A DNA stretch of 64,000 bases from a bacterium (GCA_037444125.1 JBBINA010000001.1:13961-77960), one strand, 5' to 3'; shown: positions 13,397-56,509, counted from the stretch's first letter. Program-made: numbers and translations. Notes: a model not told the origin generated them from the sequence alone.

Positions 13397-13751
13397 TCAC
13401 TGTTTGTTTGGTTTTTGTGCTAGCTTTAGGATAAGACATTTGATTGTTTTGGGTTTGGTACCGATTGGCCAGAAAAATTGAGCTACATCGGTATGTTTTA
13501 TTTTTGATTTATGCCAACATTTAAATGAAATAGTTACGCCAAAACTAAACTTTATTTTACCGTCGGTTAGTCTTGCTATGACAGTAATGTCTTTAACATT
13601 TTGATCTTCGTGAGAATTTGCTGCATGGCGGATAAATTTCGTTAGATTTTTTTCATTTGGATCAAATTTTTTCAACGCTATCTTCAAGGAATTGACATGC
13701 GTTTCGTGCGTCTAATGGAGAATTCGTTGGGCTTGCGTTTGTTTTTACCAT
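13397..13751 (-). CDS. hypothetical protein interrupted by a frameshift in a homopolymer run
   Basis: 96-aa ORF 13397..13687 plus upstream 29-codon ORF (MVKTNASPTNSPLDARNACQFLEDSVEKI) fuse if the A6/T6 run at 13667-13672 is one nt shorter. Confidence 0.35.
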
Positions 13752-13789
13752 ATTTATTATTTATGTATGCCTCCTTTAGAGCGGAAGTT

Positions 13790-14275
13790 CTAATTGAATT
13801 TCATCTTTAATGGGTATACCGTGATAGCCAATATGGGGAATTTGGGGCTTGAGTTTGCGCGATTCTTTTATGGCATCGGGGTATATTTGTGTTATTCTGA
13901 AGCCGCGTTTTGAAAGAATTGCAAGGCATTTAGATTATCATTAGTGGTTATTAGCCATATTTTGTCTAATTTTCTTTGACGGGCCATTTCGATGATTTTT
14001 TCCAAAACAATACTGCCAAATCCGATATTTTGGATATCACTATTGAGCGTAACTATTTCACAATGTTTATTTTTATTTGGTATGTTAGTACGGCGAGAAC
14101 CTGTTTTGTAAGAGCTTCGAATAATATTAAATTAGGAATTTCTAAAGCGTTAATTATTTTTTTGGCGCCTAACTATTAGAGACGTTTCTCAGTGTTTGGA
14201 AATAAATTTAGCTAATCATTCAGAGTCACCAGCAACTTTGTGGTGGATTAGAACATATTGCGATTTCATATTTCA
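13790..14275 (-). pseudogene. GNAT family N-acetyltransferase, heavily decayed
   Basis: minus-strand fragments ...NIGFGSIVLEKIIEMARQRKLDKIWLITTNDNLNALQFFQNA... and GFRITQIY... resemble GNAT motifs A/B but are split by stops and frameshifts. Confidence 0.4.
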
Positions 14276-14532
14276 CCCCTTATGTTATTATTATAGTGTG
14301 CGGTTATTTTTAAAAATCAAGTTTCACAAATAAAAAATAAAGGAGTTGTAAATTAAATTTAGACATTTACAATAAATTTAAATGATAAATATTGGAAAAT
14401 TTTACCAGAGATTTTTGGGGGCATTTTTTGCATTGGTATTGATATATCTGCCTTTAAAAAAATATTAATCATCAGTGCAAATTTAAATGAACACTCTGCC
14501 GAAGCGGCTGTTGTTACTCAAAGAACGGGGTA

Positions 14533-15948
14533 TTGCTTATGATATTTTTTGATGCTCGTTTAAATCAGCTTAGTTCAAGTATCTTGGGTACCAGTGCGCC
14601 TAGATATGACGGTATTATTTTAACGGAAGGCAATTTGGCTTATGAAGAGAACGGGCAGTTTAAGAGCGTCTTTGATGATAATGAATGGAATATTTTGTAT
14701 ACATTTGAAAACCAGTTTAGAATTAGGGAGCTAGTTATGTATACTTTTCCTACTAGTCGTTATGGCTTGGAGTTTGTTGAGACAAGGCCGGCAGGTATAT
14801 TAGCTCGACTTACGACTTCTGGTAAAGGAATATTGCCCTATGTTCCTGTAGCGGCTTCTTTAGCGATTGAAACTTATGGTTATTTAGCGAGACCTCTTGC
14901 TGGTAATACGCCATTAATAACCGATACTGACGGCCGAATAGCTGTTTCATTATATACAAACGGCAACAGAGAATTTTTAGTTTCTACTTTTGATAACAGC
15001 GTTAATCATCTTCACACTTTATTGTTTATTGACTGATTTTTAAACTGGTTGTTGAAAGGTGATTACTCCATACCTTCAGAGAATTATTTGACTGTTCATA
15101 TAGATGATATATTTATTCCTAACTCAAGTTATTCAGATCCTTCTAGAGATGTTATAATGACAAAAGAAGATTTTATTTATTTTGCCAATTGGGCTCGAGT
15201 GCGGAATTTTAGGCCAAGCCTTTTATTCAATGGTTATGGAGAAAACACGATAGAAGGAAAGACGCTTATTGATACGGTGATGAGTAGTGGAATAGCCTTC
15301 CTTTTTGAATGGATTAATCACACTTACGAACATATTAATTTAGATAATGCTTCGTTTGAGATAATTTATAATGAAATCTATAGAAATTTATCTTTCGCCT
15401 CACGTTACAAATTAACAGGTTTTGACCGTTTTGTTTTAGTCACGGGTGAACATTCGGGATTGAACAATCCTCAGCTTATTGCTGCGGCGCGGAGATTCCG
15501 CATTATAAATATAGGAGATGACGCCTCGGTGAATTTATCATCAAGATCTCTTTAGGGCATAATAACTGTACCGCGTTACCCAACAAATATTTTTGCGACT
15601 ACAGGCACGAGGCATGAGCTAGTAACTGCTTATAATACAATATATGGCACTAATTTAACTTATCCTGAAATACTTGACCGAGAGGCAAGGATTATTATAC
15701 GCCATATTTTACGGAGAGATCCGCGACCTCACTTTTTTCATCAAATCAATTTAGCACAAGATAGAATTATGATTGATTTATTAAACCTGGTTATTGAGAA
15801 GTACTCGTCATTAGATTCAAGACCATTAAAGCAATTGCGGATGAGGGAAATAGGTAAGTTATTTGGCCAAGTTACAATTTTACCTCCTTTAGTTGTAAAC
15901 AAATTGATTGGTATAACAAGGCATTTTGATGCTGATATAATGAAATAA
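14533..15948 (+). pseudogene. single ~470-codon reading frame interrupted by in-frame TGA (15034-15036) and TAG (15553-15555); possible polysaccharide deacetylase-like protein
   Basis: three consecutive open stretches in the same frame; 131 stop-free codons after the TAG; HIDD and HTYEH resemble CE4 motifs only weakly. Confidence 0.55.
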
Positions 15949-15974
15949 ATAAAAGCCTCCTAAGTTATATTGGT

Positions 15975-17452
15975 ATGTCAAAAACTATTTCAATTATAAC
16001 GGAGGGGACTTTTCCTTATGTAACTGGAGGGTTAGGGAGATGGTGTAGTGATCTTGTTTCAGGACTGGTTAATTTTAAATTCAATATTTATGCTTTTACA
16101 GCTACGCGTTATCACGTTTTTCAGTATCCTATAACTAACAATATTGAGGAAATTGTAACTGTTCCCTTGTGGGACGATAATCGTTTTCAGCATTTTTATT
16201 ACAGGAGAAAAATTAAAAAAAAAGACTTCCAGGGAAATTAATTCCCAAAGAAAGTCATATGAAGGAGAGTTTAATTGATCCCCTTTTTAGTCTTATTGGT
16301 CCTCCATATACAACTGAAATAGATATTGATTTTTTTAGAGATATATTAGTTAAACTTCGTGATTTTTTTGATAGCTATGATTATTTTGCGAGTTTTAGTT
16401 CAGGAGTATTATAGGAAGCAGCGCAAGAATTTCTCAATAGTGATGCCTTGATAGATGTTGTTTCTTGTAAGCCAAGCCTTTTTGATTTAAGGCAATTTTT
16501 GGTTATATTGAGCCTTTTTTTATATCCACTTTCTTTTGAGACGGAGTTTAAAACCGATATTTTTCACTCGAGCGTAGCTAGCTCTTTTGGTTTGTTAGGT
16601 GTTATCAACAAGATTATTTATGGAAAACCATTTGTTTTATCCGAACATGGTGTCTATCTTCGTGAGCAATATTATTTTATTAAGCAATCTCGAGTTTTAA
16701 CAAAATTTTTAAAAAAATTTTTACGCTTACTTATATACCGTTTTGTAATTTTGAATTACAATTTTGCTGATAAAATTATTCCGGTGTGTCTCTTTAATAA
16801 ACGTTGGGAACAATATTTGGGAGCAAAAGATGATAAATTGCAGGTTATCTATAATGGTATAAACGATAGCAGTGAGTTTGAATTTTTAAAACAAGAGTAT
16901 GTTAAAGAAAAAACAAGCTTTAATGATATTATATTAGTTGGCGCTTTTTATCCTTTTAAAGACATTGAAACAGCTATTAGGGCCGTAGCTATTGTTAAAA
17001 AACAGGTTCCTAATATTCGTCTCTATATTTTCGGACCAATAAAAGATAAAGACTATTTTTCTTATTGTTTAAGATTAATTAAAAATTTAAGTCTTAAAAA
17101 TAATGTTATTTACCGTGGAGTAGTGAAAGACCTACAAAATTATTTCAAGGTAGGAGGCGTTTTTTTGTCGACAAGCGTTTCAGAAGGCTTTCCTTACTCG
17201 ATTCTGGAAGCTATGTTGTATAAACAGGCAATTGTAAGCACATCTGCAGGTGGTATCCCCGAATTATTAGGTGACTGCGGTCTTTATGTTGAAATGAAAA
17301 ATCCAAACTCTGTCGCCAAAGCATGTCTTAAGCTATTACATAATCAAAGTCTTCGTATTGAATTAGGTTGGCGTGCCCACCAAAGGGCTGTAGAGCGGTT
17401 TTCTTTAAGTAGAATGCTTAAATCTTATGAGTATTTGTATAATTCGCTATGA
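15975..17452 (+). pseudogene. GT4 family glycosyltransferase (PelF-like) disrupted by an A9 frameshift and an in-frame TAG
   Basis: N-term GTFPYVTGGLGRW and C-term GFPYSILEAMLYKQAIVSTSAGGIPELLGD are GT4-like; frames join inside A9 run 16215-16223; in-frame TAG at 16412-16414. Confidence 0.7.
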
Positions 17453-18906
17453 GAAAGATTTTAAATTTTAACAATATAAAGTTATCCGAGAAAAAACTTA
17501 TTGCTCCATATATATTAGACACGGCAGTTAATCTTGAGTTTGCAGGTTACAATGATCAGCAGATAAAAAAGGAATTCGGGTTTTCCAATGTTTTTGAATT
17601 AAGCTATTTTATTCATCAGTATAGGCTTTGCCCTAAACCTTTTTTGGTAAAATCGAATAAATGGCAAGATAAGTTTTTAGCTAGTGATTCGATTAGGTTA
17701 AAAATATTTGAGTGGTTTTATTTTGGTCTAGCTAATTCTTTACTAGCCTTGGTTATTTTTTTTACTCTTTGGTTTACTGAATCAGGACATATTTTAAAAC
17801 CGATTGAAGGTTTAATAATTGTATTGTTGAGTCACATTTTTGCTTCTAGTTGGGCGAGAATACTGATTGTTAAGTTTTCATTTTATAACGATAGACCAAT
17901 AGCTGGTTATGGCGAGAAGACAATTAATCAGTATTATCTTAGGGGCCTATTTGGGATTATAACGGCAGGCATTATTTTGTTTTTTTTGTTTAGCAGAGAT
18001 AATATTTTTACCCTCGTTTTTATAGACATATCTTTATTTTGGCTTAATATAGGATATTTTGTTGCGTTTCGTCAGTTACCAATTTATTTAATAACCTTAG
18101 GTAGTATCTTGTTTCTTGGCAGTATCTATGATCCTTTTGTGCTATTTGGTGTTTTTAATGGCGTTATGATTTTTTATATTTGGCTCAAATATTTAATTAA
18201 CTTGGCGCGTGAACCATTTTCAGTTTATTCCAATTCATTTAGTAATAATTCATTGAATTTATTTTCTTTATTTTTTTTTGCTATTAATTATGGTTTCTTG
18301 CTGTTGATTGATGTCATTGTTTTGTTTTTCTATGGCCAGTTTGATACATATGATATTTTTATTCATCAGTATCTTGCCCATAAGTATTTTGGTATATTTC
18401 CTTTACTTTTGTCGGCGGGTCTTATTGAGGCATTTGGTGTTTATTTTTTTAGCAAGATTATTCGTTTGGAGCGAGTCATAAAAGAAAGCACAGTTATGTT
18501 CAATGAAATAATAAAAAACTATATCCAGACTATTAGCATTTTTTCAATGCTGCACTTTGGTGTAACGATATTAGTATCCTTCATTATTCCATTAAGCAAT
18601 GGTTATTTTAAAGAAGTTTATATTAGTTCAACTATTGGTGTTATGTTTTTGCTTTTGAGTTTGTTTAATTTGAACATTCTTCATTATTTGGGATGGCGTA
18701 AAGATTTGTGGTTTGGTATAGTTAGTTTATTTGTGGGATATGTTTATGGCAGTTTAATGTTTTATAATGTTGCCGCATACGCTGTTGTTTATGGTTTTTT
18801 GATGGCCGGGATTGTCTTTTTTGTCACAACAATGGCTTTGTTGTTGAAAAAAGCTTTACGGTATAGCTACTTAGTTTATTTAACTTCTGTATTGCCAAAG
18901 TTATAA
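17449..18906 (+). CDS. polytopic membrane protein (about 12 TM; candidate polysaccharide exporter/polymerase, PelG-like by architecture only)
   Basis: 485 aa, ~70-aa soluble N-term then multiple TM helices; ATGA overlap with upstream GT4, TAATG overlap with downstream gene. Confidence 0.55.
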   Translation: MRKILNFNNIKLSEKKLIAPYILDTAVNLEFAGYNDQQIKKEFGFSNVFELSYFIHQYRLCPKPFLVKSNKWQDKFLASDSIRLKIFEWFYFGLANSLLALVIFFTLWFTESGHILKPIEGLIIVLLSHIFASSWARILIVKFSFYNDRPIAGYGEKTINQYYLRGLFGIITAGIILFFLFSRDNIFTLVFIDISLFWLNIGYFVAFRQLPIYLITLGSILFLGSIYDPFVLFGVFNGVMIFYIWLKYLINLAREPFSVYSNSFSNNSLNLFSLFFFAINYGFLLLIDVIVLFFYGQFDTYDIFIHQYLAHKYFGIFPLLLSAGLIEAFGVYFFSKIIRLERVIKESTVMFNEIIKNYIQTISIFSMLHFGVTILVSFIIPLSNGYFKEVYISSTIGVMFLLLSLFNLNILHYLGWRKDLWFGIVSLFVGYVYGSLMFYNVAAYAVVYGFLMAGIVFFVTTMALLLKKALRYSYLVYLTSVLPKL

Positions 18907-20111
18907 TGAGGGCTTTTTTATTTATATTAATGATAGTAATGATATTGGTTGGTGTAGCGGTTGGTGATGCTTTTTTAAGTGCAGCGGCTATTTTTGAAAG
19001 GCCGATTCTTCGAGGGCCAAGCAACGGCAAATTAATAAACGAAACTCCTATTATATTTACCTGGTCTAAAATTAAAAACGAGCCTAGATACCAAATTGAT
19101 ATTTCTCTTTCAGCCGATTTTAATAAGATAATAATTACAGAAACAGTTATTGGAAATACTTATACGCTTAGGTTTTTAGATAATGATGGTATATATTATT
19201 GGCGAGTTAAATTAGCAGGGTTAATGTTTTTTTTAGCTCCATGGTCAGAAGTTTATAAATTTACTTATAAAAAAAAATTAAAAGATCAGGTTTTAACTGA
19301 ATTAAGCCAGTCTGAATTTAAACAGCCAATTTTTCGGTTTAGAAACTGGGTATCTTATTATGGCAGCAATAAAATCGAGGAATTAAAAAAGTTCGAGCTT
19401 GTTGTTATTGATGCAGATAAAGATATAGGAAATTATACTGACGAGGAGTTGCGTCAACTCAGAGATTCTGGGTCATTAGTAGTGAGTTATTTAAATATTG
19501 GTTCATGTGAAACCTTTCGTACTTATTGGTATTTGTGTCAAAAGTTTAAACTTAAGCCATATAAAGGGTATTCAGATGAATATTGGATGGATGTGACTAA
19601 TATTGACTATCAAAATTTTATAGTCAATATTTTAGCTAAAAACCTTGTTTCGCAGGGCATAAACGGTTTGTATTTGGATAACATTGATATATATCAGGAA
19701 AGTTTTAACGGAAGGACAATAGCAGAAATCAAGGCAGGATTAGCTAATATTATTGTTGCCTTAAGGAGAACATATCCTGATTTGCTTCTTATTGCTCAAA
19801 ACGGCGTCTACGCTTCTTATGATGATATTTTATATTTTAGTTCAACAATTACTGATTCAAAACCACTTTATACTTTTATTGATGGTGAGTCTCACGAGGA
19901 AGTTTTTACTAATACTAGCGAAACTCAGTCTATAGTAAGTATGCTACAAGATCTTAAGAGCAAAGGTTTGTTTATTTTAAACCTTGAGTATTTGGAAGAC
20001 CTTCAAGATATTGATAGAATAAGAGATATTTATAACCGCTCTATCCAAAACGGGTTTTTGCCATATATTTCAGATGTAAAGCTTGACAAAATTTACCTTT
20101 GGAATTTTTAA
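18906..20111 (+). CDS. secreted GH114-like glycoside hydrolase (endo-alpha-1,4-polygalactosaminidase / PelA-hydrolase / TM1410 family) with N-terminal Ig/FN3-like domain
   Basis: signal/TM N-term; motifs VVSYLNIGSCETFRTYWY and GLYLDNIDIY typical of the GH114 TIM barrel. Confidence 0.65.
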   Translation: MRAFLFILMIVMILVGVAVGDAFLSAAAIFERPILRGPSNGKLINETPIIFTWSKIKNEPRYQIDISLSADFNKIIITETVIGNTYTLRFLDNDGIYYWRVKLAGLMFFLAPWSEVYKFTYKKKLKDQVLTELSQSEFKQPIFRFRNWVSYYGSNKIEELKKFELVVIDADKDIGNYTDEELRQLRDSGSLVVSYLNIGSCETFRTYWYLCQKFKLKPYKGYSDEYWMDVTNIDYQNFIVNILAKNLVSQGINGLYLDNIDIYQESFNGRTIAEIKAGLANIIVALRRTYPDLLLIAQNGVYASYDDILYFSSTITDSKPLYTFIDGESHEEVFTNTSETQSIVSMLQDLKSKGLFILNLEYLEDLQDIDRIRDIYNRSIQNGFLPYISDVKLDKIYLWNF

Positions 20112-20138
20112 GCTACCTTTTGCAATATTTAAATAATA

Positions 20139-22410: not shown

Positions 22411-22412
22411 TT

Positions 22413-25049
22413 ATGGATAAAAAGCAATTAGAGAATCTTTATTTTGAAGATTTTTTTACAACACTTTCTTCGGCAGAAAGAAGCACTTTACAGATGTTGG
22501 CGCGGTTTTTTTGGTATTGTGTTTTTGGACTTGGATTTATTTTCTTTATTATCGGATTAAATCAAAGTTTATTTTCGCCCAGACTCCTTGTGTCCCTATT
22601 TTTTGAACGCTCATTTTACTACGCCCTATTTTGGTTAGGCCTTTTTTTGTTGTTGTATTTTTTTCATCACTTCTATAAGAGTCGAAAACCTCGTCTTAAT
22701 TTACGAGAAATTGATCTTGTTTCTGAACTTAAATATAGGAAAATAAATAGCGCTTACTTTTTGGAGCCAGAGACAAAAAATTTTATTATTAATGTATTTG
22801 AGAGGAGCAAAAAAGAACTAATCAAAATTGATTTTAGTTTATTTGAGGCTCTTTTAGAAACTAAGTTTTTTGAGAATGTGCTTGATCATTTGGAAACTAG
22901 TTTAGAAAAAATTAAAAACCGTTATCAAACAGCGCGTAACGAGATTAAAAGATATAAAAATAGCAACGAGCTCTTAATTGATTTTGACGATTTAATAAGA
23001 GAGGCGGTTAATAATGCTTTGGTTTTTGATGACGAGGCTGTTGATTTGACTCATTTAATGGTTGCAATTTTAAAGCGGGAGAATAAATTCTTTAGCGATA
23101 TTTTTTTAGGCGAGAATATTGATTTTGACGATGTTAAGCACGTTTTGTTTTATAAAAAGCTACGGCATAAATATTTATATCTGATTCATAAGTCAAAACC
23201 GCGCCGTATTGAGCATAAGTATATGGATTTGGCTATGACAGCAAAGCCAACTTATTATTTAGATCAATTCTCTCATGACCTAACTGACTTGGCGCGTTAT
23301 GGCATTATTGGCTTTGTGATTGGCCATAAAGACGAAACCGAAGAGTTGATTAATATTTTGAATCTCGATGTTAAAAATAATGCAATGTTGATTGGACCTA
23401 CGGGTATTGGTAAAACAACTATTATTGAAAATTTAGCTTGGCGCGTGTTTCGCGGTACAGTGCCGCCAAAACTGCGTGATAAACGTGTAGTTGCTTTGGA
23501 TACTGGTTCTATTTTAAGTGGCTTAAAGACGCCCGGTGAGTTGCAAGAAAGATTAAGCAAAATCCGTGATGAAATTTTAAATGCCAAAAATTTGATTTTA
23601 GTGATTCCCGATCTTCACGATTTAATGAAGGCTACTTCTATGCAGGCAATTTCTTTGTCTTCTTTCTTTAGCTCTGTTTTTCAGATGACAGATTTCCCAT
23701 TATTGGCGACTACAGATGAGAAGAATTATCATCTTTATATTGAGCCGGACACTGAAATAATTAATGCTTTTAATCAGATTAAAATTAGGGAAATTTCTCC
23801 TGAGGAAGCTTTGTATCTTCTTATGATTGAATCTTTTAAGATTGAAGCTAAGAAAAATGTAGTGATAAGTTATTATGCTTTAAAGGAGACAGTTGAGATT
23901 GCTGTGAAATATATTCATAATCAACCCTTGCCTGGTAAAGCGACCTTATTGCTTTATGATGGTGTGGAAAATGTTTTAGCGCAAGGTAAAAGATTAGTGA
24001 CCAAGGAAAACCTGCGTGAAACTTTTACTAAAAGGACAGGTATACCTATTACCCAGACAAAGGGAGAGGAGAAAAGAATACTGTTGGAACTTGAGCAAAT
24101 TTTACATCAACGTATGGTTGATCAAGAACAGGCCGTTAAGGTTATTGCTGAAGCCTTACGAGAAGCGCGAACCGGCCTTGGTCATGAAAAGGGTCCTATT
24201 GGGACTTTTCTTTTTGTTGGTCCTACAGGCGTTGGAAAAACAGAAATGGCCAAAACTTTAGCTAGTTATTATTTTAAAGGCGAAGATAAAATGCTTCGTT
24301 TTGATATGTCGGAATATCAAACAAATGACGCTATTTATCGATTGATTGGTTATCGTGGTCAAGGCGGGTTTTTAACAGAGGCAGTTAAACAAAACCCATT
24401 TTCATTGGTGCTGTTGGATGAATTTGAAAAAGCCAATCGGGACGTTTTGAATCTTTTTTTGCAAGTTTTTGATGACGGTCGTCTTACTGATGAGCTTGGT
24501 AATGTGGTTGATTTTACTAACACTATTATTATTTGCACTTCTAATGCCCATTCGGTTTTGATTAAGGAGGAATTAGAAAAAGGACGAAATATTCAAGAGT
24601 TAAGAGATATTATGAAACAACGGCTTACTGATTATTTTAAACCAGAACTAATTAATCGATTTGATGAGATTGTGGTTTTTAAGCCATTGAGTTCTGACGA
24701 TATAAGAAAAATTGCCTTACTACAGATTGGGAGACTTTTTTGGCAATTGGAGAATGATAAGGGTTTTAAATTTAAAATAAGCGAACGAGCGCTTAATAGG
24801 ATAGCTCGAGTTGGTTTTGATCCGGTTTATGGGGCTCGTCCGTTAAGACAGGCTATTCGTAAGAAAATAAAAAATTTAATTTCTCTTTTAATTTTACAAG
24901 ATAGGCTTGAGCGAGGTAAACATTATTTGCTTGATTATGAGGAAAATAAAGACTTTTTCGTCATTGACGAAAATCTTAGAACTACTTTAAAATTGGAGGC
25001 GCAGGAGAGAATAAAATCTGCTAAAGAGGAAATAAAGGGTGGCAAATAA
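22413..25049 (+). CDS. ClpC/ClpB-family double AAA+ ATPase with N-terminal transmembrane segments
   Basis: 2-3 N-terminal TM helices, Clp_N-like repeat, D1 Walker A LIGPTGIGKTT, D2 FLFVGPTGVGKTE, LLDEFEKA, sensor/ClpB_D2-small. Confidence 0.85.
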   Translation: MDKKQLENLYFEDFFTTLSSAERSTLQMLARFFWYCVFGLGFIFFIIGLNQSLFSPRLLVSLFFERSFYYALFWLGLFLLLYFFHHFYKSRKPRLNLREIDLVSELKYRKINSAYFLEPETKNFIINVFERSKKELIKIDFSLFEALLETKFFENVLDHLETSLEKIKNRYQTARNEIKRYKNSNELLIDFDDLIREAVNNALVFDDEAVDLTHLMVAILKRENKFFSDIFLGENIDFDDVKHVLFYKKLRHKYLYLIHKSKPRRIEHKYMDLAMTAKPTYYLDQFSHDLTDLARYGIIGFVIGHKDETEELINILNLDVKNNAMLIGPTGIGKTTIIENLAWRVFRGTVPPKLRDKRVVALDTGSILSGLKTPGELQERLSKIRDEILNAKNLILVIPDLHDLMKATSMQAISLSSFFSSVFQMTDFPLLATTDEKNYHLYIEPDTEIINAFNQIKIREISPEEALYLLMIESFKIEAKKNVVISYYALKETVEIAVKYIHNQPLPGKATLLLYDGVENVLAQGKRLVTKENLRETFTKRTGIPITQTKGEEKRILLELEQILHQRMVDQEQAVKVIAEALREARTGLGHEKGPIGTFLFVGPTGVGKTEMAKTLASYYFKGEDKMLRFDMSEYQTNDAIYRLIGYRGQGGFLTEAVKQNPFSLVLLDEFEKANRDVLNLFLQVFDDGRLTDELGNVVDFTNTIIICTSNAHSVLIKEELEKGRNIQELRDIMKQRLTDYFKPELINRFDEIVVFKPLSSDDIRKIALLQIGRLFWQLENDKGFKFKISERALNRIARVGFDPVYGARPLRQAIRKKIKNLISLLILQDRLERGKHYLLDYEENKDFFVIDENLRTTLKLEAQERIKSAKEEIKGGK

Positions 25050-25110
25050 TCTTTTGTCGTAATTATCATAGACCTTTTTTTTGGAATTTGTAAACGTTAG
25101 ATGTTTTCAT

Positions 25111-25138
25111 TTGACTTACTGCATTAATTTTTTATAAT
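25111..25138 (+). promoter_or_regulatory. near-consensus sigma70-type promoter TTGACT-16-TATAAT
   Basis: seen directly; about 350 nt upstream of the next CDS (25489). Confidence 0.5.
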
Positions 25139-25367
25139 ATAGTTTTCTCTGATATTGCGAGCTATAAGCAAACTTTAGTTGACGATGACAAAGCAATTTC
25201 AGAGAAAATTCTTCTTTTGGTGTTGTGAAAAGGAGCAAAACATTTTTGTTGATAGTGTTCTAACAACCTAAAGAAGTTCTTTTGTAACCCCGTGGTCTAA
25301 GTCATAAGACTTTTGACCAGAATGTTGTGAATGACCGTGAAACTTCTGTTGAGGTAGCTAGACAACT

Positions 25368-25410
25368 CCTTGTTTTTTTATATTATTTTTGGAGGTTCGA
25401 TCTCCAAAAA
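25368..25410. repeat. short repeated hairpin element copy R1 (CCTTGTTT...TTTTTGGAGGTTCGATCTCCAAAAA)
   Basis: 8-bp stem TTTTGGAG/CTCCAAAA with 7-nt loop; a related copy at 34043-34098. Confidence 0.4.
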
Positions 25411-25488
25411 TGCGGTGTTATAAATTTAAGTCCTTGACAAATTTTATTTTAGCTTATATAATTAATAAGTAAATTTTGATTTTATTTA

Positions 25489-26340
25489 ATGATTAATAAT
25501 AAAGAAAAAAATCCCAACAAACGAGACTATGAAATACCTGGCGATTTACCTTTGGTTAATGAAGAAGAGGATAATGAAGTTGTAAAAGATAAAACTGAAG
25601 AAACGGTTGATAACGACAAAGTAGATCAAATGCAAGAAAAAGATACATCCATAGAGAGGTTAATCAAAGATGAAGAAATAGCCAAACAAGCTGCTGATTT
25701 TATGCGGCGTACTAGCGAAGACTCCACTGAGATGAGAAGTGCCATGGGTAGCATTAAAGATGTGTTAAAGCTGTTTCTTCCATTGGTTGCTGTTTTCCTG
25801 TTTTTAATACTTATCCTTGTATTTTTGATTTATCGAGTTAATAAAGCTATTTTGAATAACCTAGATTTTTTGCGCCGTGAAGATTTGGGTCAACGCAGTG
25901 GTGTTATTATTGATAAAAGTAATGGTTCAATAGAAGTTGCTATTTTTGATCCAGTGACTAGCGATAAAAAAAAACTAAGGTTTGAGTTGGATAACTTTTC
26001 TGAATTTTCCGAGGTTAATCTTAATTTCTGTTATGTTTGGAAAGAGCATAAGGAAGAGATGGCTCGGATTATGCCTAAACGTCCTTGGTATCCGACGCTT
26101 TTATTATATGTTTTACAGTGGACTTCGATGTCGCCTTCCCTTTATCCGCCGTTTCCATGTGACCGTCAAGAGATTGCTGATCGAGGGATGATTTTTGAAG
26201 ACAAAATAGGTCTTGGCGAATTAAGGAAAAACGACTATGTGATTATAAAGGCTAAGCGTAAAGGGGATAAGTTAAGTATAGCTAAAGTTTGGAAGATTGA
26301 GCCTACATTTTTAATGCCACTTTTGACTAATAAGCAATAA
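25489..26340 (+). CDS. hypothetical protein (acidic N-term, one TM, C-terminal domain)
   Basis: 283 aa ORF, no recognisable motifs. Confidence 0.5.
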   Translation: MINNKEKNPNKRDYEIPGDLPLVNEEEDNEVVKDKTEETVDNDKVDQMQEKDTSIERLIKDEEIAKQAADFMRRTSEDSTEMRSAMGSIKDVLKLFLPLVAVFLFLILILVFLIYRVNKAILNNLDFLRREDLGQRSGVIIDKSNGSIEVAIFDPVTSDKKKLRFELDNFSEFSEVNLNFCYVWKEHKEEMARIMPKRPWYPTLLLYVLQWTSMSPSLYPPFPCDRQEIADRGMIFEDKIGLGELRKNDYVIIKAKRKGDKLSIAKVWKIEPTFLMPLLTNKQ

Positions 26341-26473
26341 AATTAAAATTTTCTTCAAACCGTTATATTTCATTTTGTGCTTGACTTTTGATATATATCT
26401 ATATACACTGGTTTAAGGTTTTTTCTTAGAAAACCAAGGTCGTATTAATTTATCAAGATAAAAATATTTATAG

Positions 26474-26788
26474 ATGAACGTTAAGAATAAAGATGTAGAT
26501 ACTCCTCAGCAGTCAATAGTGAAGGGCGAGTGGAAATGTGCGCAGTGTGAAGGCACAATCAGCGAACTTCCTTTTCAACCTCGGGAAGGATCCAAGGTAT
26601 ACTGCAAAAATTGTTGGCAGGATAGGCGAAGTTTTACTCCTAAGAGGTTTAAAAGCGGACCGCGTCAAACATTTCAGGGGGAATGGAAATGTTCAGATTG
26701 CGGCGCTGCTATTAGCGAACTTCCATTCCAGCCAGCCGAAGACCGTCCAATTTATTGTCGCGATTGCTGGTTAAAAAAAAGAGGCTAA
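26474..26788 (+). CDS. tandem-duplicated CxxC...CxxCW zinc-ribbon protein
   Basis: two ~45-aa repeats GEWKC(A/S)xC..(T/A)ISELPFQP....YC(K/R)(N/D)CW; the underlying DNA repeats are ~65% identical. Confidence 0.6.
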   Translation: MNVKNKDVDTPQQSIVKGEWKCAQCEGTISELPFQPREGSKVYCKNCWQDRRSFTPKRFKSGPRQTFQGEWKCSDCGAAISELPFQPAEDRPIYCRDCWLKKRG

Positions 26789-26813
26789 ACTACATTAAAT
26801 TAAATACAGAAGC

Positions 26814-26846
26814 AAAAAGTGTGTAGTTAAAACTACGCACTTTTTG
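26814..26846. terminator. bidirectional rho-independent terminator between convergent genes
   Basis: A-tract, 10-bp stem GTGTGTAGTT/AACTACGCAC, T-tract. Confidence 0.65.
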
Positions 26847-26891
26847 TTTAGGTTTTTTATGTATTTGGATTCCAGCTTATTTTTAAAAAAA

Positions 26892-29800
26892 TCATTTGGA
26901 AAGTTCTTCTAAATCTTCGGCAATAATTTTAATTTGGTTTTCAAATCTTTCCACTTTGCCTTTAATGATTAAAACATTTTCTTCGCGGAGGCACATATGT
27001 TTTAGCTCGTAGAGGTTGGGAAAAACGATACATTCTGCAGAGCCGGTGAGATCTTCAATACGGCAAAAAGCCATTCGTTTGTTGTTACGCGTCAAGACTT
27101 TTTTTAAATTAGTTATAAGCGCTACTGTTTTGACGGTTTTCAGGTTCGATTGGCGGATTTTCTTTAAACTGTAGCCTAGCGAGAGTTTGTGTTGAAAACT
27201 TTTTAAAGGATGGCCTGAAATATACAATCCTAAAAATTCTTTTTCCCATCGTAGTTTATCGTTTTCATAAGTGTCTTGGTCAGGAAATTTTTCTAGTTTT
27301 AAATTTAATGATTGTTGTTCGTCGAATAGCGTTTCTTGCATACCGATAGTTTCTTTTTCACGGTTCATTTTAAGAAGATAGTCAATATTATATAAAAGCT
27401 GTAGCCTGTTTTCGCCTAATTGGTCAAAGCATCCCGATTTAATCAGGGCTTCAAAACTTTTCTTGTTGAGATCTTTGTGTTTAACCCGCTGAATGAAGTC
27501 AGCCAAGTTTTTAAAATTTCCATTGGCGTTTCTTGTTTCGACAATGCTTTTGGCTAAATTTTCGCCAACATTACGTATGGCTCCTAGGCCAAATCTTATT
27601 TGGAGAACATCACCTTTTTCAATAGGTGTGAAATTTTCATCGCTTTCATTGATATCAGGCGGTAGTACTTCAATATTTAGACGTTTTGTTTCATCAAGAA
27701 GTTGGGCAATTCTTTCTATTTTATAGCCTTCATTAATTAAAAGGGCGCAGATAAAATAAAGTGGGAAGCTAGCTTTAAGGTAAGCAGTGCGATAGGCAAT
27801 AACAGCGTAGCAAGCCGCGTGAGATCTGTTGAAGCCATAGCGCGCGAATGGTATAAACCAGTTCCAGATGCGTTTAGCCACTTGTTCTTTTATTCCATTT
27901 TTTACCATACCTGTAACTAGTTTTTCGCCTTCTTCAATTAGTAGGGATTTTATTTTTTTACCAACGGCTCTTCTTAATTTGTCTGCTTGAGAATAGCTGA
28001 AGCCGGCAAGTTGACGAGCTATCTCTATAAGTTGTTCCTGATAAACGGCAATACCGTAAGTTTTATTTAAGATTGGTTCAAGGCCGGGGTGAAGATATTC
28101 AATTTTTTCGAGTTTGTTTTTGCGATTGATGTAATGTTCAACTTGCCCCGCGTCGAGAGGTCCTGGCCTATAGAGTGATATCATAGCAATAATGTCTTCA
28201 AGTTCTGTGGGTTTAAGTTCAGATAAATATCGGCGCATGCCATCAGATTCAAGTTGAAATACGCCGACAGTAGAGCCATCTTGGAGAATTTCGAAAGTCT
28301 TTTTATCAGTATAGTCATCTTTTTCAATATCAAGGTTAATATTTTTATATTTTTTGATTAAACTTAAGGTATCTTCGATGATGGTTAGATTTCTCAGGCC
28401 AAGAAAGTCCATTTTGAGCAAGCCTATTTCTTCAATCGCTTTCATATCGTATTGGCTAATGATTGTGTTATTTTTGTCTTTTGAATCAGTTGTAGCGTAT
28501 TGTAGTGGTAAATAATTATGTAGCGCCTTATCTGCCATTACGACTCCACAGGCATGTTTTGAAACGTGACGCGCAACTCCTTCAAGATCTATAGCGATGT
28601 CAATTAGTTCGCGAACTTTAGGATCAGAGGTATATTGTTTGCGTAGCTCGGGTATTTCTAATGAAGCTTTTTTTAAAGGATAGTTAGTTGGGATGAGTTT
28701 TGAAATTGAATCACAGAATGAATATGGCAGTCCCAAGATGCGTCCAACGTCTCTTACGGCCTGCTTTGATTTTATTTTTCCGAAAGTAATAATTTGAGCC
28801 ACATTATTTTGTCCATATTTTTGACGAGCATATTCAATTACTTCATCACGGCGTCTATCAGCAAAGTCAATATCAATATCAGGAAAGGTAATTCTTTCTG
28901 GATCTAGGAATCTTTCAAACATAAGGCCATATTTTAAGGGATCAATGTCGGTGATATTTAAGGCATAAGAGACAAGACTGCCGGCTGCCGATCCGCGACC
29001 CGGCCCTACCACGATTCGGTTTTGCTTGGCGTAATTAACGAAATCTTGGACAATCAGCAAGTAAGAGGAGAAACCAGTTTGTTGGATGACTTTAAGTTCA
29101 TAATCGAGACGTTTTTTGATAGTTTGTTTTTGTGTTTTAGTGAGTTGATCGAAATTAAATCGTTTTTTAATGCCAGCATTAGCTAATTTTTTTAAGTAGC
29201 TAAAATCAGTTTCGCCGGGAGGAACTTTAAAAATTGGCATTATTTTTTTCTTTGCCTCAAGGTCAAGATGAATTGAGTCTTTGATAATAGAGGTATTAAC
29301 AAGAGATTCTTCCGGCAGATCGAGCAAATTAATATACTGCATCATTTTTGCTTCATCAGGAAAGGAGAAATCTTCTTTTTTCATAGAAAGCCTTTCTTCT
29401 GGATCGCTTTCATTGGTTTGAATTGCGATTAAAACATCTTGTGCTGTTTTATGGGTTGATTTAATATAATGACTATCATAAGTTAGAACCAGCGGAATTT
29501 TTAAAGATTTGGAAAAATCGATAAGTGCTTTATTGACAATTTGTTGTTCGGGGATATTTGGATGAGGTTGAAGTTCAAGATAAAAATTATTTTTACCGAA
29601 TATGCCATACATTTTATCAATTAACTTTTTAGCTTCATTTATTTTACCAGCCAGTATTGTTTTTGATATTTGGCTATTAAGACATCCTGAAAAACATATA
29701 AGGCCTTCAGAATGTTTAGTTAGAAGTTCAAGGTCGATTCTTGGTTTATAATAAAAGCCTTCCAGCCATGATTTTGTAACTAATTGAATTAAATTATGAT

Positions 29801-30101
29801 AGCCAACAAGATTTTTGGCTAGAATTGTAAGATGGTATCTTTTTTGATCAACTTTGGGAATTTTGCTCGTATAAGAACCCGCCGCCACATAAAATTCGCA
29901 GCCGATGATTGGTTTTATGCCCTTTTCTTTGCAAGCTTTATAAAACTCGATGGCTCCGTATAAGTTGCCATGATCTGTTAGGGCAACGGCGTCCATACCA
30001 AAATCAACGCATCTGTCGATAATATCTTCAATCCGCGAAAGTCCATCAAGGAGGGAATAATTGGAGTGAGTATGAAGATGTATAAAACGAGATTTAGCCA
30101 T
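26892..30101 (-). CDS. dnaE: DNA polymerase III alpha subunit
   Basis: 1069 aa; PHP domain N-term HLHTHSNYSLLDG, polymerase core, OB fold. Confidence 0.97.
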   Translation of the reverse strand: MAKSRFIHLHTHSNYSLLDGLSRIEDIIDRCVDFGMDAVALTDHGNLYGAIEFYKACKEKGIKPIIGCEFYVAAGSYTSKIPKVDQKRYHLTILAKNLVGYHNLIQLVTKSWLEGFYYKPRIDLELLTKHSEGLICFSGCLNSQISKTILAGKINEAKKLIDKMYGIFGKNNFYLELQPHPNIPEQQIVNKALIDFSKSLKIPLVLTYDSHYIKSTHKTAQDVLIAIQTNESDPEERLSMKKEDFSFPDEAKMMQYINLLDLPEESLVNTSIIKDSIHLDLEAKKKIMPIFKVPPGETDFSYLKKLANAGIKKRFNFDQLTKTQKQTIKKRLDYELKVIQQTGFSSYLLIVQDFVNYAKQNRIVVGPGRGSAAGSLVSYALNITDIDPLKYGLMFERFLDPERITFPDIDIDFADRRRDEVIEYARQKYGQNNVAQIITFGKIKSKQAVRDVGRILGLPYSFCDSISKLIPTNYPLKKASLEIPELRKQYTSDPKVRELIDIAIDLEGVARHVSKHACGVVMADKALHNYLPLQYATTDSKDKNNTIISQYDMKAIEEIGLLKMDFLGLRNLTIIEDTLSLIKKYKNINLDIEKDDYTDKKTFEILQDGSTVGVFQLESDGMRRYLSELKPTELEDIIAMISLYRPGPLDAGQVEHYINRKNKLEKIEYLHPGLEPILNKTYGIAVYQEQLIEIARQLAGFSYSQADKLRRAVGKKIKSLLIEEGEKLVTGMVKNGIKEQVAKRIWNWFIPFARYGFNRSHAACYAVIAYRTAYLKASFPLYFICALLINEGYKIERIAQLLDETKRLNIEVLPPDINESDENFTPIEKGDVLQIRFGLGAIRNVGENLAKSIVETRNANGNFKNLADFIQRVKHKDLNKKSFEALIKSGCFDQLGENRLQLLYNIDYLLKMNREKETIGMQETLFDEQQSLNLKLEKFPDQDTYENDKLRWEKEFLGLYISGHPLKSFQHKLSLGYSLKKIRQSNLKTVKTVALITNLKKVLTRNNKRMAFCRIEDLTGSAECIVFPNLYELKHMCLREENVLIIKGKVERFENQIKIIAEDLEELSK

Positions 30102-33896: not shown

Positions 33897-33970
33897 TCCG
33901 GGATCGTCTAATGGCAGGACGCCACGCTCTGGACGTGGAGATTGGGGTTCGAGTCCCTGTCCCGGAGCCA
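33897..33970 (+). tRNA. tRNA-Gln (anticodon CUG), CCA-encoded
   Basis: cloverleaf folded by hand: acceptor TCCGGGA/TCCCGGA with U1:A72 typical of bacterial tRNA-Gln, D stem GTCT/GGAC, anticodon stem CCACG/CGTGG, loop CTCTGGA, T arm TGGGG-TTCGAGT-CCCTG, GCCA end. Confidence 0.85.
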
Positions 33971-36040: not shown

Positions 36041-37047
36041 ATGCCTATACGAATTGGTCTGAATGGTTTTGGGCGGACAGCGCGGACTTTTTTTAGAATT
36101 GTAAGCGAAAGTCCATCGGTTGAGCTTGAGGTTGTAGCTATTAATGTAAAAAGTCAAAGCCCAGAGCAAGCAGCTTATTTACTTAAATATGATTCAGTAT
36201 ATGGACGATACTCCAAAGATGTATTGTATAACGATAAAACCATCAAAATAGAAGGTTGCGAAGTTCCGATTCTACAGGTTTCAGACCCGGCAGAAGTTCC
36301 TTGGTTTAAGTTTGATGTAGATATAGTTGTCGAAGCAACTGGGAAGTTTAGATCATTTGATAAAGCAGCTAAACATCTTGCCAGCGGTGGAGTTAAAAAA
36401 GTGCTTATTACTGCGCCGGCAAAAGGCGATATTCCCACTATTGTCTTTGGGGTTAATGACAATATTTATAACAAAAAGAGGTATCATATAATTTCAGCTG
36501 TTTCTTGTACTACTAATTGTTTGGCACCTGTGGCTTTATTTTACATAAAGAGTTTGGAATAAAAAGGGGTTTAATGACTACGGTTCATGCTTATACTGGT
36601 AGTCAAAATTTAGTGGATAGCAGTAACGAAGATATGGTTGAAGGCCGGGCGGCGGCTGTCAATATTATTCCGACAACAACAGGAGCGGCTAGCGTCATAG
36701 GTTTAGTAATCCCGGAACTGAAGGATAAACTTGATGGTATGGCTTTTCGCGTGCCCGTTCCTACAGGATCAGTGATTGACCTAGTAGTGGAATTAGAGAA
36801 GAAGGTTCTTGTTGAAGAGGTTAATAATATTTTTAAGCAATACGCTTTTGGTCAATTTAAGAAAACACTTGGTATTTCTGAGTGGCCATTAGTTTCCTCA
36901 GATTGTATTGGCGATAGCAGATCTGCCATTGTTGATTTAAGCTCAACTAAGATTATTGATGGAGACTTTTTAAAAGTAGTAGCTTTTTATGATAATGAGT
37001 GGGGTTATTCTGCGAGACTTGTTGATATTGCTAAAATGCTTTTATAA
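36041..37047 (+). CDS. gapA: glyceraldehyde-3-phosphate dehydrogenase, interrupted by a 1-nt frameshift near 36535-36545
   Basis: GLNGFGR, SCTTNCLAP then frame switch, then GLMTTVHAYT; two overlapping ORFs 36041..36562 and 36517..37047; strong SD AAAGGAGGT. Confidence 0.85.
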
Positions 37048-38421: not shown

Positions 38422-39259
38422 GTGAATACATATTTTAAAATAAGTTTAAAAATTTTTTTCATTGTTGGCGGTTTATTTTTTGGTTTTGTAGGTGAGTTTA
38501 GTACAGGACAATTGGTTCATTTGTCATCAGACTTTGATTTAGAAGTTGTTTCTTTCATCACTTCTCAAAATACTCGTCGAGTTGTTCGAAATCAGGACAA
38601 AAAGATATACGGCGCAATTGTGCTGCATCGTTTATTAGCTAAACCAATTATTACCGAAATCTTGAACGAAGTAGCGCAAATTTTTAAATTGCAGAAATGA
38701 ACACCTAATCAGGTTATACTCTTTTCTCCGAATCATTTTTTAACTGGAAAGTATCCTATAATTGGCACAAGCTTTGATTGGAAGACAAAATTTGGCATTG
38801 TTCAAAGCGACAAAATTGAGACTGCTGTTTTTGGTTTAACTATTAAGCGTGAGTATCTCGATTTGAAAAATAAGCCTATAGAAGAGTTTTCTGCCGGTGA
38901 TTTAGTAAAGATAAAATTGATCGTTAATTCCCGTAATAATGAAAAATTAATTTACATTATTATCGAGGATTTCTTACCATCTAGTTTTGCTCCTCAAAAT
39001 CCGCGATTAGAGAACGGGAGTGAACGAGAACGTCGGTGGTGGGGGTACGAAATGGATATAAGAGATGAACGTGTGGTTTTTTGTGGACAATCTTTGGAAT
39101 GACATACATATATTTGACTATATAGCGCGCGTCAACTTTAGAGGCGAGTTTGAGGTGTCAGCTCCGCAGGTTCAAATGATGTATGTGCCTACAAATTATG
39201 GCTTTGGTAGTGCTAAAAAAAATGATTATAAATTAAATTTTTTCAATTGGGTTTTTTGA
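38422..39259 (+). pseudogene. C-terminal remnant of an alpha-2-macroglobulin family protein (A2M receptor-binding/MG10-like region)
   Basis: IIEDFLPSSFAPQNPRLEN matches the A2M C-terminal LPAGxExEN motif; in-frame TGA at 38698-38700, frameshift in T6 run 39077-39082; the N-terminal >1000 aa expected for A2M are absent. Confidence 0.5.
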
Positions 39260-42832: not shown

Positions 42833-43749
42833 TCAATCGGCGAAAATAGCTAAAACTAGCGGCACGGCGATTAGCGAAAAAATCGTTGAAGTAAGTATAG
42901 CCATACTTACTGCTTTTGTGTCAAGATTAAATCTTTGTGCTATGACGAATGTGGTTACTGCTGTTGGCATAGAGGATAAAAGCAGAGGAATCCTAATATC
43001 CGGAGTTCTAAAGACAAATAGGGCAATTAAGACTGTTATAAAGGGAAATAAAAGCATTTTGGTTATACTTATTATTAAGATTAAACTCATATTTTTTGTT
43101 TGAAATTTGCCGTATAAAAACTACCCAACAAAAAAAGGGCTAGTGGCGAGGCGGTTTGGCCGAGCATATTAAGGGTTTTTTGGAAGGCTTGTTCTAATTG
43201 AGTATCTGTTTTGACGAAACTTAAGACGGCGCCAATTGCAATCGAAATAACCAGCGGATTCTTGGCAAATTCAAATACTTCGTTTTGAATATTATTTTGA
43301 TGTTTATCGTGCCAGTAGTAAATGACAAATATTGAAGTCAAAATTGGAATTACCAAATAAAGATTGCCGATAATAGCGGCTGTGGGTAGGTGATTTTTCC
43401 CGAATCCAAATTCAACCAGCGGAAAGCCCATATAGATTGTATTGCCGGTAATGGCAGCAAGAAATAGGGCAGATTTGAGACTGTTTTTAATTTTAGCAAT
43501 TGATAGGACAAAAAAAACAATAAGTGAAAAAACAAAAAGCGTTATTAAGCCAAAAACAAAATGCCGATGAAGATTTGTGTCGGTTAGGTTAAGGTTCCAT
43601 AAGCTGACTATTACTAGTGCTGGAAGCGAAACATAATAGGCAAAAATATTTAAAATATGGACCCAGGAGTTGTCGGCAAGTTTAAGTTTTCGAAAGAGCC
43701 AGCCGGCGAAAATTATAAGAAATAGAGGCAGAGAAATAAAAAATGGCAT
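42833..43749 (-). CDS. auxin efflux carrier (AEC) family transporter, split by a 1-nt frameshift in the central loop
   Basis: ORFs 43087..43749 and 42833..43090 overlap in ATGA; they fuse if the A6/T6 run at 43093-43098 is one nt longer; two 5-TM halves typical of the AEC/Mem_trans family. Confidence 0.7.
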
Positions 43750-49055: not shown

Positions 49056-49101
49056 CCATTTACTTGAAGATTGTTAACTAATTAATAAATAAGCAAATTT
49101 T

Positions 49102-49608: not shown

Positions 49609-49664
49609 ATAAAAAATATAAAGTTAATTGGTAGTTAAAAACATGAATTGAAATTAGACGAATT

Positions 49665-50921: not shown

Positions 50922-50923
50922 TT

Positions 50924-53401: not shown

Positions 53402-53442
53402 TAGATAGAGAATGATTATAGCTTTAATTTGACTAGGATAAA

Positions 53443-53922: not shown

Positions 53923-54080
53923 GGATTTAGTCCAAAAACTTTAATTTAATTAGCCAGAGAATTTCAGTATAAAAACAGGACAACTTCAACTTGATATCTA
54001 ATTTGCATTTGGTTTTTGAAATGGTAAAATTATTAGTAATACAGTATTAAGAAAATAGGATTTAATTTGTAATTTTTTCT

Positions 54081-54344
54081 ATGGCCGAGGATTATAAAGA
54101 AGTTTTAGTGGGCGAAATTATTCATTATTATGGTCATATTGGCGTAGGTATCGTGAAACTGGAAGGAGCGCTTAGGGTTGGCGATAAGATTCATATTAAA
54201 GGGCATTCGGATGATTTTGAGCAAGTGGTTGAGTCAATGCAAGTGGAGCATAAGCCTGTTGATTCAGCTAAGAAGGGTGAAGTCGTTGGTGTAAAAGTTG
54301 TCCAAAAAGTGCATGAAGGTGATAAAGTATATTTGGTTAAATGA
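54081..54344 (+). CDS. small beta-barrel protein resembling EF-Tu domain 2
   Basis: 87 aa; G(V)GIVKLEG.LRVGDKIHIKG pattern. Confidence 0.45.
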   Translation: MAEDYKEVLVGEIIHYYGHIGVGIVKLEGALRVGDKIHIKGHSDDFEQVVESMQVEHKPVDSAKKGEVVGVKVVQKVHEGDKVYLVK

Positions 54345-54708
54345 GCTGAATTTTTTCAGTCAGTCTGCGTTAATTATAGCAGATTTATGTTTACCAAAAA
54401 TTTTTTGATTGTTTTAATCTCCGTTATGGTTATTATTAATAATGGTATTATTTTGTTAGCTACGAGTTTTATTTTGAAGTCAAAATTTTAGTTTTAAAAA
54501 AAATAGTTTTATGATTTTGTTGAGCCAGTTTTATATTTTATTTCTTTTTATTCTATACTTGAAAACTTGACCGATTTTTAATCAATAAGATAGCAATTCC
54601 AAGATAGTAATTTTAAAATTTACGCATATTTTTAAACAATTCTGTACCAAACATAAAAAGATATGTTTTATTTTAATAGCATATTAAATTATATATAGCT
54701 AAGAAAGA

Positions 54709-55134
54709 ATGGTTTATTATATTTTTAGTTTTACCATTGTTTTAATCAGCGCTTTTTTACTGATTAAACTTGATATGACGTCCTACAGTAATTTAGGACT
54801 GGCTATTTTGGTTATATTTTTGGCAAGCATGCTTTTTTCTATAGCTTATACAGCTTATGTTACGAATGTGAGGGATTGGGATAAGAAAATTAAAGAAGTT
54901 GGTTGGGACAAATTAAGCCGGCAGGACAGAATAAAGCTTACAACAGAAACTTTGTTAGTTGTCGGTCTTTTAATAGTTACGGCAATTTATATTAAGGAGA
55001 GATTTTTTGAGCGAGAAGTTGGTTTTGGCAACTTTTTAAGCACCACATTTTTAGTTATTTCTGCAAGAGTTTATATAGAGTATAGACTTATACTCGCAAT
55101 CAGAGCAAAAATAAAAAAGCCAGAAGTTGTTTGA
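54709..55134 (+). CDS. hypothetical membrane protein
   Basis: 141 aa, 4 predicted TM. Confidence 0.4.
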   Translation: MVYYIFSFTIVLISAFLLIKLDMTSYSNLGLAILVIFLASMLFSIAYTAYVTNVRDWDKKIKEVGWDKLSRQDRIKLTTETLLVVGLLIVTAIYIKERFFEREVGFGNFLSTTFLVISARVYIEYRLILAIRAKIKKPEVV

Positions 55135-55521
55135 AACCTCTCAACAGAAGTTTTGAAGTTTTGATATGTTTCACAACATTCTGGCTCCATCAATGGAATT
55201 ACGAAAGAACTTCTTTGGAGTTGCTCTAGGAGAATGAACAAAAAGTTTTGGCTTTAATCGCAACATCCAAAGAATAGTTTTCTCTGAAGTTGCTAACACC
55301 GAGTCAACAAAATGTTTCACTTTCAGACACAACATTCAGAGAAATAATATTATAAGGTAATTTAAATTATAAAGTCAAATAAAACAAATTTTTAAAAATT
55401 TGACTAGATAATTTAGGTATAATAAAATTATATTGTATGTCTGTATAAAATTGTTTAACTTAATTTATTTGCAACATTTTATTTATGCCTCAGGCAGCAA
55501 AAACTCGGGTAAATATTATGC

Positions 55522-56509
55522 GTGGCTTACGGTTTAGCGATTGTTACAGGTATAACAGCTTTTGCCATAGCATATACTAATTTAACGGGTTCTCTTTCTA
55601 CGACTATTAATACTTCAAGTATTTATGGTTTAACTATAGAGGGAATAAAAGATTTAGTTTGGAATCCTGCTATCAATTACAAATATTCGGCTGTTGGCAC
55701 TAGTTCAAGAAATGGCAAAATAACATATTACTTTGAGTGGAGCGATGGTATTTTTTTAACAAGACCTTAAAAGCTGATAGCGGCAAACGAGTATTTATAA
55801 AAAGAAGGTTTCCTGCGCCAGGAGCTTACTGGCTTAAAGTTACAGCTGCAGATCAATATGGAGCTAAAGCGCAAAAAGTTGGAGGATCTTTTACGGTAAC
55901 AAATCAAAATCCAAGAGTAAATTTTTACGGCTTTGATTTAAGTTATTATCGCGATAAAACTTACTCATTTGCTATTGAAATGTTAGAGGATAAATTTGAT
56001 AGGATTGTAAGTTATAGCTGTAGTTGGCATGATAGTATATCTTGTGGTTCTCCTTCTGTTACAGGAAATGGCAAAAAATACTTTATAAAACCGATAGGGA
56101 GTTTAAAAATGCTGGCGCTTTCAGAGTTAATTACGAAGCCACTGATTCTTACGGAGGATGGAGGATTTAGTAGTGGCAGCAAAACAATTTTTGTAGCCCC
56201 AAATAGACCTCCCGTCATTTCTATTAATGTCCTACTGTTATAACTAGGGGTGGAATGGGGACATGGTATTATAGATGTTCGTGACGGAGAGGATAGTGTC
56301 CAAAATACCATTACAGAACTAGAGTGTAAGTGATCAGATGGGGTTAATTGTAGCAATGTACCATTTCCAGGGTTTAACGAGGTTTTATTTCAAGAAGTTA
56401 GGAGTTTTTCTAAAACAGGACTTTTAAGCTAACAGTAAGGGCAACAGATAATGAAGGTGCCGTAACAAGTAAAATTTATTCAGTGACAGTAACTGAATTA
56501 ACGCCATAG
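55522..56509 (+). pseudogene. PKD-repeat surface protein, degraded by multiple frameshifts
   Basis: PKD-like segments (ITYYFEWSDG..., YWLKVTAADQYGAKA, LTVRATDNEGAVTSKIYSVTVTE) spread over three frames; first shift inside the T7 run 55751-55757. Confidence 0.55.

Follow-up and report, generated by a model that had tools for sequence, protein, structure and literature searches.

Background

Frameshift pseudogenes at poly(A) and poly(T) tracts are a known feature of AT-rich, host-restricted bacteria such as Buchnera and Blochmannia, where rescue of the reading frame has been discussed for tracts of 9-10 nt. A different setting is offered by Neisseria, Haemophilus and Campylobacter, in which homopolymeric contingency tracts lie in surface and lipopolysaccharide (LPS) genes. 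Comparable breaks can also originate from the sequencing itself, since artefacts of the nanopore, 454 and Ion Torrent platforms take the form of split genes which fuse after a one-base change in the length of a run, with a bias towards deletions. The present study concerns a stretch of bacterial DNA of 64,000 nucleotides (GCA_037444125.1, JBBINA010000001.1:13961-77960; hereafter the window, with positions counted from its first letter), in which several genes located between positions 13,397 and 56,509 are split at or near short A/T runs. These genes are here considered, with a probability of roughly 0.8, to be genuine pseudogenes resulting from ordinary gene decay and not from sequencing error.

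The closest described cases are metagenome-assembled genomes (MAGs) of Parcubacteria, in which pseudogenes account for 5-10% of the genes according to Pseudofinder counts (PMC11188291). Like the window, MAGs of Parcubacteria and of the candidate phyla radiation (CPR) represent small, AT-rich, CPR-like genomes with fragmented and truncated genes, which have been read as ongoing reduction. The local density in the window, with around seven of roughly 55 genes affected (about 13%), is at or above this genome-wide range, and a core glycolytic enzyme is among the affected genes; moreover, the lesions are resolved here to the single base and were compared with a second assembly.

The other described systems share some of the features of the window and differ in others. 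As in Buchnera and Blochmannia, one-base insertions and deletions (indels) in A/T runs dominate in an AT-biased genome and are accompanied by nonsense mutations and deletions, but the window provides no evidence of host-restricted endosymbiosis or of slippage rescue, and most of its runs are shorter. A run of nine adenines early in a polysaccharide glycosyltransferase gene is reminiscent of contingency loci; unlike these, the gene is also interrupted by a nonsense codon, polymorphism in tract length was not observed, and the remaining tracts are short. Platform artefacts are resembled in that the split genes of the window fuse after a one-base change and that the changes are biased towards deletions, whereas the recurrence of the breaks in a second assembly, their clustering, the lack of scaling with run length and the co-occurrence of substitutions, a duplication and a truncation set the window apart from them.

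Results and discussion

Genes split at A/T runs

An initial annotation of the window had listed six genes as split at mononucleotide runs, each fusing into one open reading frame (ORF) after a change of one base. All six runs are present at, or within one base of, the positions reported there: T6 at 13667-72 in a 'hypothetical' gene (A6 on the gene strand), A9 at 16215-23 in a GT4 glycosyltransferase gene, T3 at 36535-37 and T4 at 36539-42, separated by a single A, in gapA, T6 at 39077-82 in an alpha-2-macroglobulin (A2M) gene, T6 at 43092-97 in an AEC transporter gene (A6 on the gene strand; the coordinates first reported, 43093-98, are one base off, position 43098 being a G) and T7 at 55751-57 in a PKD-domain gene. 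Homology continues across the lesion in GT4, gapA, A2M (bMG10 domain), AEC (Mem_trans) and PKD, and thus five of the six splits are upheld, while the 'hypothetical' gene, having no homologue, is not; the same continuity was found in two further broken genes, through their GNAT and Agd3_CE matches. A one-base change lengthens the ORF at each of the six runs, as had been proposed, but gapA (335 aa) and AEC (305 aa) are the only ones for which the result is a complete gene. After the corresponding correction, GT4 still ends at the TAG at 16412, PKD is broken further downstream, and the A2M piece is no more than a C-terminal remnant.

Within the interval in which each frameshift can lie (19-50 nt), long runs occur above chance overall (combined p ~0.003), an effect driven by the A9 and T7 runs. 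The T3/T4 site of gapA is not notable, as a run of this length is expected in a random coding interval with P = 0.80.

Recurrence in a second assembly

The window was compared with Logan contig SRR11582170_6450 (78 kb), a k-mer assembly of raw reads which covers window positions 7449-63401. Run lengths are identical at all six sites. Across the 56 kb compared, the two assemblies differ by four single-nucleotide polymorphisms (SNPs; positions 25316, 36566, 42698 and 50135) and by a single indel, an intergenic run at 49611-49616 which is A6 in the window and A5 in the Logan contig. One of the SNPs is intergenic, one changes R to K in gapA 25 nt past the frameshift, another changes V to A in an ORF of 164 aa, and the remaining one, located in the glycerate kinase gene, is synonymous. 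These differences suggest a slight heterogeneity of the population.

Lesion types, clustering and run length

The damage extends beyond changes in run length. Six in-frame stop codons were found in the broken genes, representing all three types: TGA at 15034, TAG at 15553, TAG at 16412, a possible TGA at 38698, TAA at 56241 and TGA at 56331. A reassignment of stop codons was considered and rejected, as all three types lie in frame in broken genes while TAA, TGA and TAG also end normal long ORFs. The lesions are concentrated in a small number of genes, with six in PKD, two in GT4, two in an Agd3-like gene, at least two in a GNAT gene, a frameshift and a truncation in A2M, and one each in gapA and AEC. 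The four frameshifts in the 988-bp PKD gene have a Poisson probability of ~6e-5, and frameshifts are associated with nonsense or truncation lesions of the same gene (Fisher p = 3e-4). The functions affected are mostly accessory, or related to the surface or to exopolysaccharides.

The breaks do not become more frequent with increasing run length. The window holds 769 runs of at least 5 nt and 26 of at least 8 nt; among the genic runs of the latter class, 19 out of 22, including three 9-mers, are in frame in intact coding sequences, and only the A9 of GT4 coincides with a break. The genes for DnaE, ClpB and PPDK, which together contain 31 runs of at least 6 nt, are all intact.

Genuine decay is favoured because the second assembly agrees with the first, because the broken genes also contain nonsense codons, a duplication and a truncation, because the lesions are clustered, and because the longest runs are mostly intact. 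This supports what the initial annotation had put forward as a fallback, namely an ongoing gene decay in case the run lengths were real. In such a scenario, replication slippage in A/T runs of three to nine bases would generate one-base indels, mostly deletions, as the main lesion type, and these would be accompanied by larger deletions, by a tandem duplication of 7 bp and by AT-biased (G-to-A style) nonsense substitutions, e.g. from TGG to TGA. PKD, GNAT, Agd3-like, GT4 and A2M would accordingly represent old wrecks with multiple lesions, and gapA and AEC young, single-lesion breaks in otherwise perfectly conserved genes.

Single-lesion genes: gapA and the AEC transporter

The gapA gene, encoding a type I GAPDH (36041..37047, plus strand), is split into ORFs of 173 aa and 157-176 aa by the loss of one T in TTTATTTT (36535-42), and carries no other lesion. 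The stretch between the codons for 'PVA' and those for 'LHKEFGI' is short of exactly one nucleotide. The addition of one T yields a 335-aa protein which aligns without gaps to nine GAPDHs at 53-70% identity and retains all the invariant residues, including SCTTNC. Its closest relatives are GAPDHs from Bipolaricaulota and Fraserbacteria (69-71%), whereas the closest phylum-named relatives of DnaE (26892-30101) belong to Parcubacteria/Nealsonbacteria (52-54%); this mismatch may reflect a horizontal origin of gapA or merely the higher conservation of this gene. When the fused protein was compared with the GTDB species representatives, only distant GAPDHs were found (at most 71%, from Bipolaricaulota and Fraserbacteria), without synteny.

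The AEC/Mem_trans transporter gene (42833..43749, minus strand) is split into 220 aa and 85 aa by the loss of one A in the gene-strand A6 (T6 at 43092-97) and is likewise free of other lesions. The two fragments cover positions 7-251 and 268-342 of the Mem_trans profile and the fusion covers 7-342; the fused protein is gapless at the junction in comparison with eight homologues of 303-313 aa. The stop codon of the N-terminal fragment overlaps the ATG of the C-terminal one as ATGA (43087-43092, minus strand), a layout like that of translationally coupled genes.

The Pel-like operon

Two of the genes with multiple lesions are adjacent. At 14491-20111, the genes for an Agd3/PelA-like deacetylase and for a PelF-like GT4 with DUF3492 are directly followed by those for a 485-aa protein and for a GH114 hydrolase. 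The arrangement looks like a Pel/GAG-type exopolysaccharide operon in which the first two genes are pseudogenes and the last two look intact. The 485-aa protein has no Pfam match and is possibly PelG-like.

The polysaccharide deacetylase pseudogene (14491..15948, plus strand) is kept in a single frame and is interrupted by in-frame TGA (15034-36) and TAG (15553-55) codons. With the stops read through, the score of the Agd3_CE match increases from 30.5 to 56.6 bits, and the matched residues 271-427 span the TAG at 15553. The GT4 pseudogene (15975..17452, plus strand) combines the frameshift at A9 (16215-23) with an in-frame TAG at 16412-14, and its 492-aa reconstruction matches positions 2-267 of the DUF3492 profile in a single stretch across both lesions, in addition to the Glyco_trans_1_4 and Glycos_transf_1 profiles. 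Pfam matches therefore span both the 15553 and the 16412 stops.

The PKD gene

The most heavily degraded gene encodes three PKD repeats (55522..56509, plus strand; 988 bp) and carries six lesions. Three frameshifts lie at T7 (55751-57), A6 (56073-78) and T4 (56422-25), and a fourth change of frame is due to a perfect 7-bp tandem duplication at 56153-66, in which GGAGGAT occurs twice. The duplication and the one-base loss in the upstream A6 together restore the frame, and the out-of-frame stretch between them stays open. Two in-frame stops follow, TAA at 56241-43 and TGA at 56331-33, the latter being a change from TGG to TGA at the tryptophan of a repeated 'WSDG' motif.

The reconstructed protein as a whole scores 26.5 bits against a Pfam cut-off of 23.5. 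The repeat fused at T7 reaches 17.8 bits in comparison to 14.6 for the C-terminal part alone; taken by itself, this match is weak. The second repeat is not recognised by Pfam in either frame, and for this reason the further lesions of the gene rest on the scores among internal repeats and on the visible duplication: once the lesions are undone, the z-scores of the alignments among the three repeats rise from 2.6-4.7 to 9-13.

The A2M remnant, the GNAT pseudogene and a putative ORF pair

The A2M piece (38422..39259, plus strand) is the C-terminal remnant of a bacterial alpha-2-macroglobulin, comprising the MG10 domain, and its T6 run at 39077-82 carries an insertion of one base. Once fused, it matches the bMG10 profile at positions 1-130 of 131 (E 4e-16) across the junction and aligns to residues 1476-1606 of the 1614 of E. 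coli YfhM, at its extreme C-terminus. At least 1,400 aa are absent upstream, as the preceding gene ends at 38279 and only ~1 kb lies between. An in-frame TGA at 38698-700 is a possible additional lesion.

A GNAT acetyltransferase pseudogene (13779..14270, minus strand), which was not among the genes first listed, contains at least two frameshifts and a degraded N-terminal half. According to a three-frame reading, one of the frameshifts lies at a four-base run, T4 at 13908-11 on the plus strand. The reconstructed C-terminal half matches positions 65-116 of the Acetyltransf_1 profile (E 5e-9).

The 'hypothetical' gene is a putative ORF pair (13397..13751, minus strand) split at T6 13667-72, in which the removal of one base extends the product from 96 to 120 aa. 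The fused sequence has no homologue among 5.8 billion protein clusters and no Pfam match, no gene is called in this region in the Logan annotation, and the codon log-likelihood is 0.11 per codon in comparison to 0.26 +/- 0.07 in real genes, indicating a weak codon bias.

Evidence against decay and alternative explanations

Several observations weigh against the interpretation of the split genes as genuine pseudogenes. Eight of the nine verified one-base lesions are deletions, which is consistent with the natural deletion bias but also with an error of the nanopore type. Both assemblies may derive from the same reads, those of run SRR11582170, and these may come from an error-prone platform. 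Sibling contigs stop at an M50 peptidase gene, before all six sites, and no intact ancestral allele was seen in them. Lastly, the genes for enolase, PPDK and glycerate kinase are intact, and the loss of gapA beside them would be metabolically surprising.

The decay could also be part of a more specific process, with a CPR/Parcubacteria-like lineage undergoing an active burst of genome reduction in which a horizontally related gapA (closest to Bipolaricaulota) and an AEC transporter gene have been freshly hit by single slippage events and are possibly still partly functional, either in the form of split polypeptides or through slippage at a low level, be it transcriptional or ribosomal. This extended scenario is improbable; if true, it would capture a moment in the emergence of the patchy central metabolism of CPR bacteria.

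The initial annotation preferred systematic homopolymer miscalls of a long-read or pyrosequencing assembly as the explanation. On this reading, indel errors of the platform (nanopore, 454, Ion Torrent) would have been carried into the assembly, and the genes would be intact in the organism. All the verified one-base lesions are indeed in or beside A/T runs, a correction of one base suffices to turn gapA and AEC into perfect full-length genes, and one intergenic A-run differs between the assemblies; in addition, a literature search for the run accession SRR11582170 gave no match, so that no paper on the run was found. Systematic miscalls are nevertheless very unlikely as a general cause. The k-mer assembly of the raw reads reproduces the run lengths, and noisy reads hardly yield a 78-kb contig at k=31. 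Nonsense codons, a 7-bp duplication and a truncation in the same genes lie outside the reach of such errors, the lesions do not follow the number of runs, and genic runs of 8-9 nt are mostly in frame while gapA is broken at a trivial T3/T4. At the single-lesion sites of gapA and AEC a read error is unlikely too, but still conceivable, because the assemblies may share reads from an error-prone platform.

Alternatively, gapA and AEC could still be expressed, either through ribosomal -1 frameshifting or transcriptional slippage, or as two cooperating polypeptides. Polymerase slippage is known to rescue A/T-tract frameshifts in AT-rich endosymbionts; the perfect conservation of the two genes apart from the break would agree with continued expression, and the ATGA overlap of the AEC fragments is typical of translational coupling. 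This possibility deserves little credence. The gapA site, GCU UUA UUU UAC, does not conform to the canonical X XXY YYZ heptamer and its homologues are not split, and programmed -1 frameshifting was therefore rejected for this gene; a T4 is too short for efficient transcriptional slippage; among the homologues of GAPDH and AEC, all those listed at full length consist of a single ORF; and the ATGA overlap is a trivial consequence, probably a by-product, of the ancestral 'K N M S' codons.

Slipped-strand phase variation, which had also been suggested and by which runs would switch surface and exopolysaccharide genes on and off within the population, finds a classical setting in the A9 located early in the PelF-like GT4 (around codon 93-96 of 492) and candidate targets in the envelope proteins PKD and AEC, but it is extremely improbable, given that no run length gives an ON state in GT4, with its in-frame TAG 190 nt downstream, or in PKD, with its five further lesions, that a changed tract length would produce an intact ON-state gene only for gapA and AEC, that the two consensus assemblies show no run-length difference at any site, that the majority of the runs are limited to 4-7 nt, and that gapA does not belong to the surface genes.

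Under the favoured interpretation of gene decay, a Parcubacteria-like genome would be losing a Pel-like exopolysaccharide operon, an alpha-2-macroglobulin, a PKD surface protein and possibly GAPDH; we infer the loss of these functions, and what it would imply for the lifestyle of the lineage, from the state of the genes. Both the mechanism and the phenomenon are well known, and what is new is the instance, which involves a glycolytic gene and an exopolysaccharide operon in a CPR-like genome and adds a base-resolved example to the reports of 5-10% pseudogenes in such genomes. As regards quality control, the split genes should be annotated as pseudogenes and not 'repaired' by polishing, nor should they be taken as a sign of a poor assembly.

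Host lineage and genomic surroundings

The window lies within an NCBI contig of 89.6 kb and has a GC content of ~34%. Exact look-ups found its proteins in two contigs only, and DnaE has a 100% match in both NCBI and Logan. Siblings of DnaE at 87, 84 and 69% identity occur exclusively in Logan assemblies, the sibling populations being those of runs SRR27730029-40 and SRR15058747. The matches that come next have identities of 52-54%, and those among them with a phylum-level name all belong to Parcubacteria, Nealsonbacteria or Patescibacteria. The host is thus probably an uncultured, Parcubacteria-like bacterium of the CPR/Patescibacteria, from a rarely sampled clade. No match was obtained in JGI metagenomes with a neighbouring 404-aa PKD protein as the query.

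An 87-aa ORF at 54081-54344 with a weak match to EF-Tu domain 2 was initially considered a candidate gene fragment; it reads as a small but complete ORF and was not counted as a pseudogene. The GC skew is positive, strong (0.1-0.3) and without a switch over positions 1-64000, and the genes lie mostly on the plus strand. A single tRNA was found in the window, a tRNA-Gln(CTG) at 33897-33970.

The sibling contigs identified via DnaE are syntenic with the window around dnaE, with protein identities of 65-84%. One of them (L085, at 84% identity) contains, in the portion corresponding to window positions 25049-26892 (7379-8447 and 10065-10535 in L085), three small genes of 141, 135 and 156 aa which have no counterpart in the window, and which show a turnover of gene content between close lineages.

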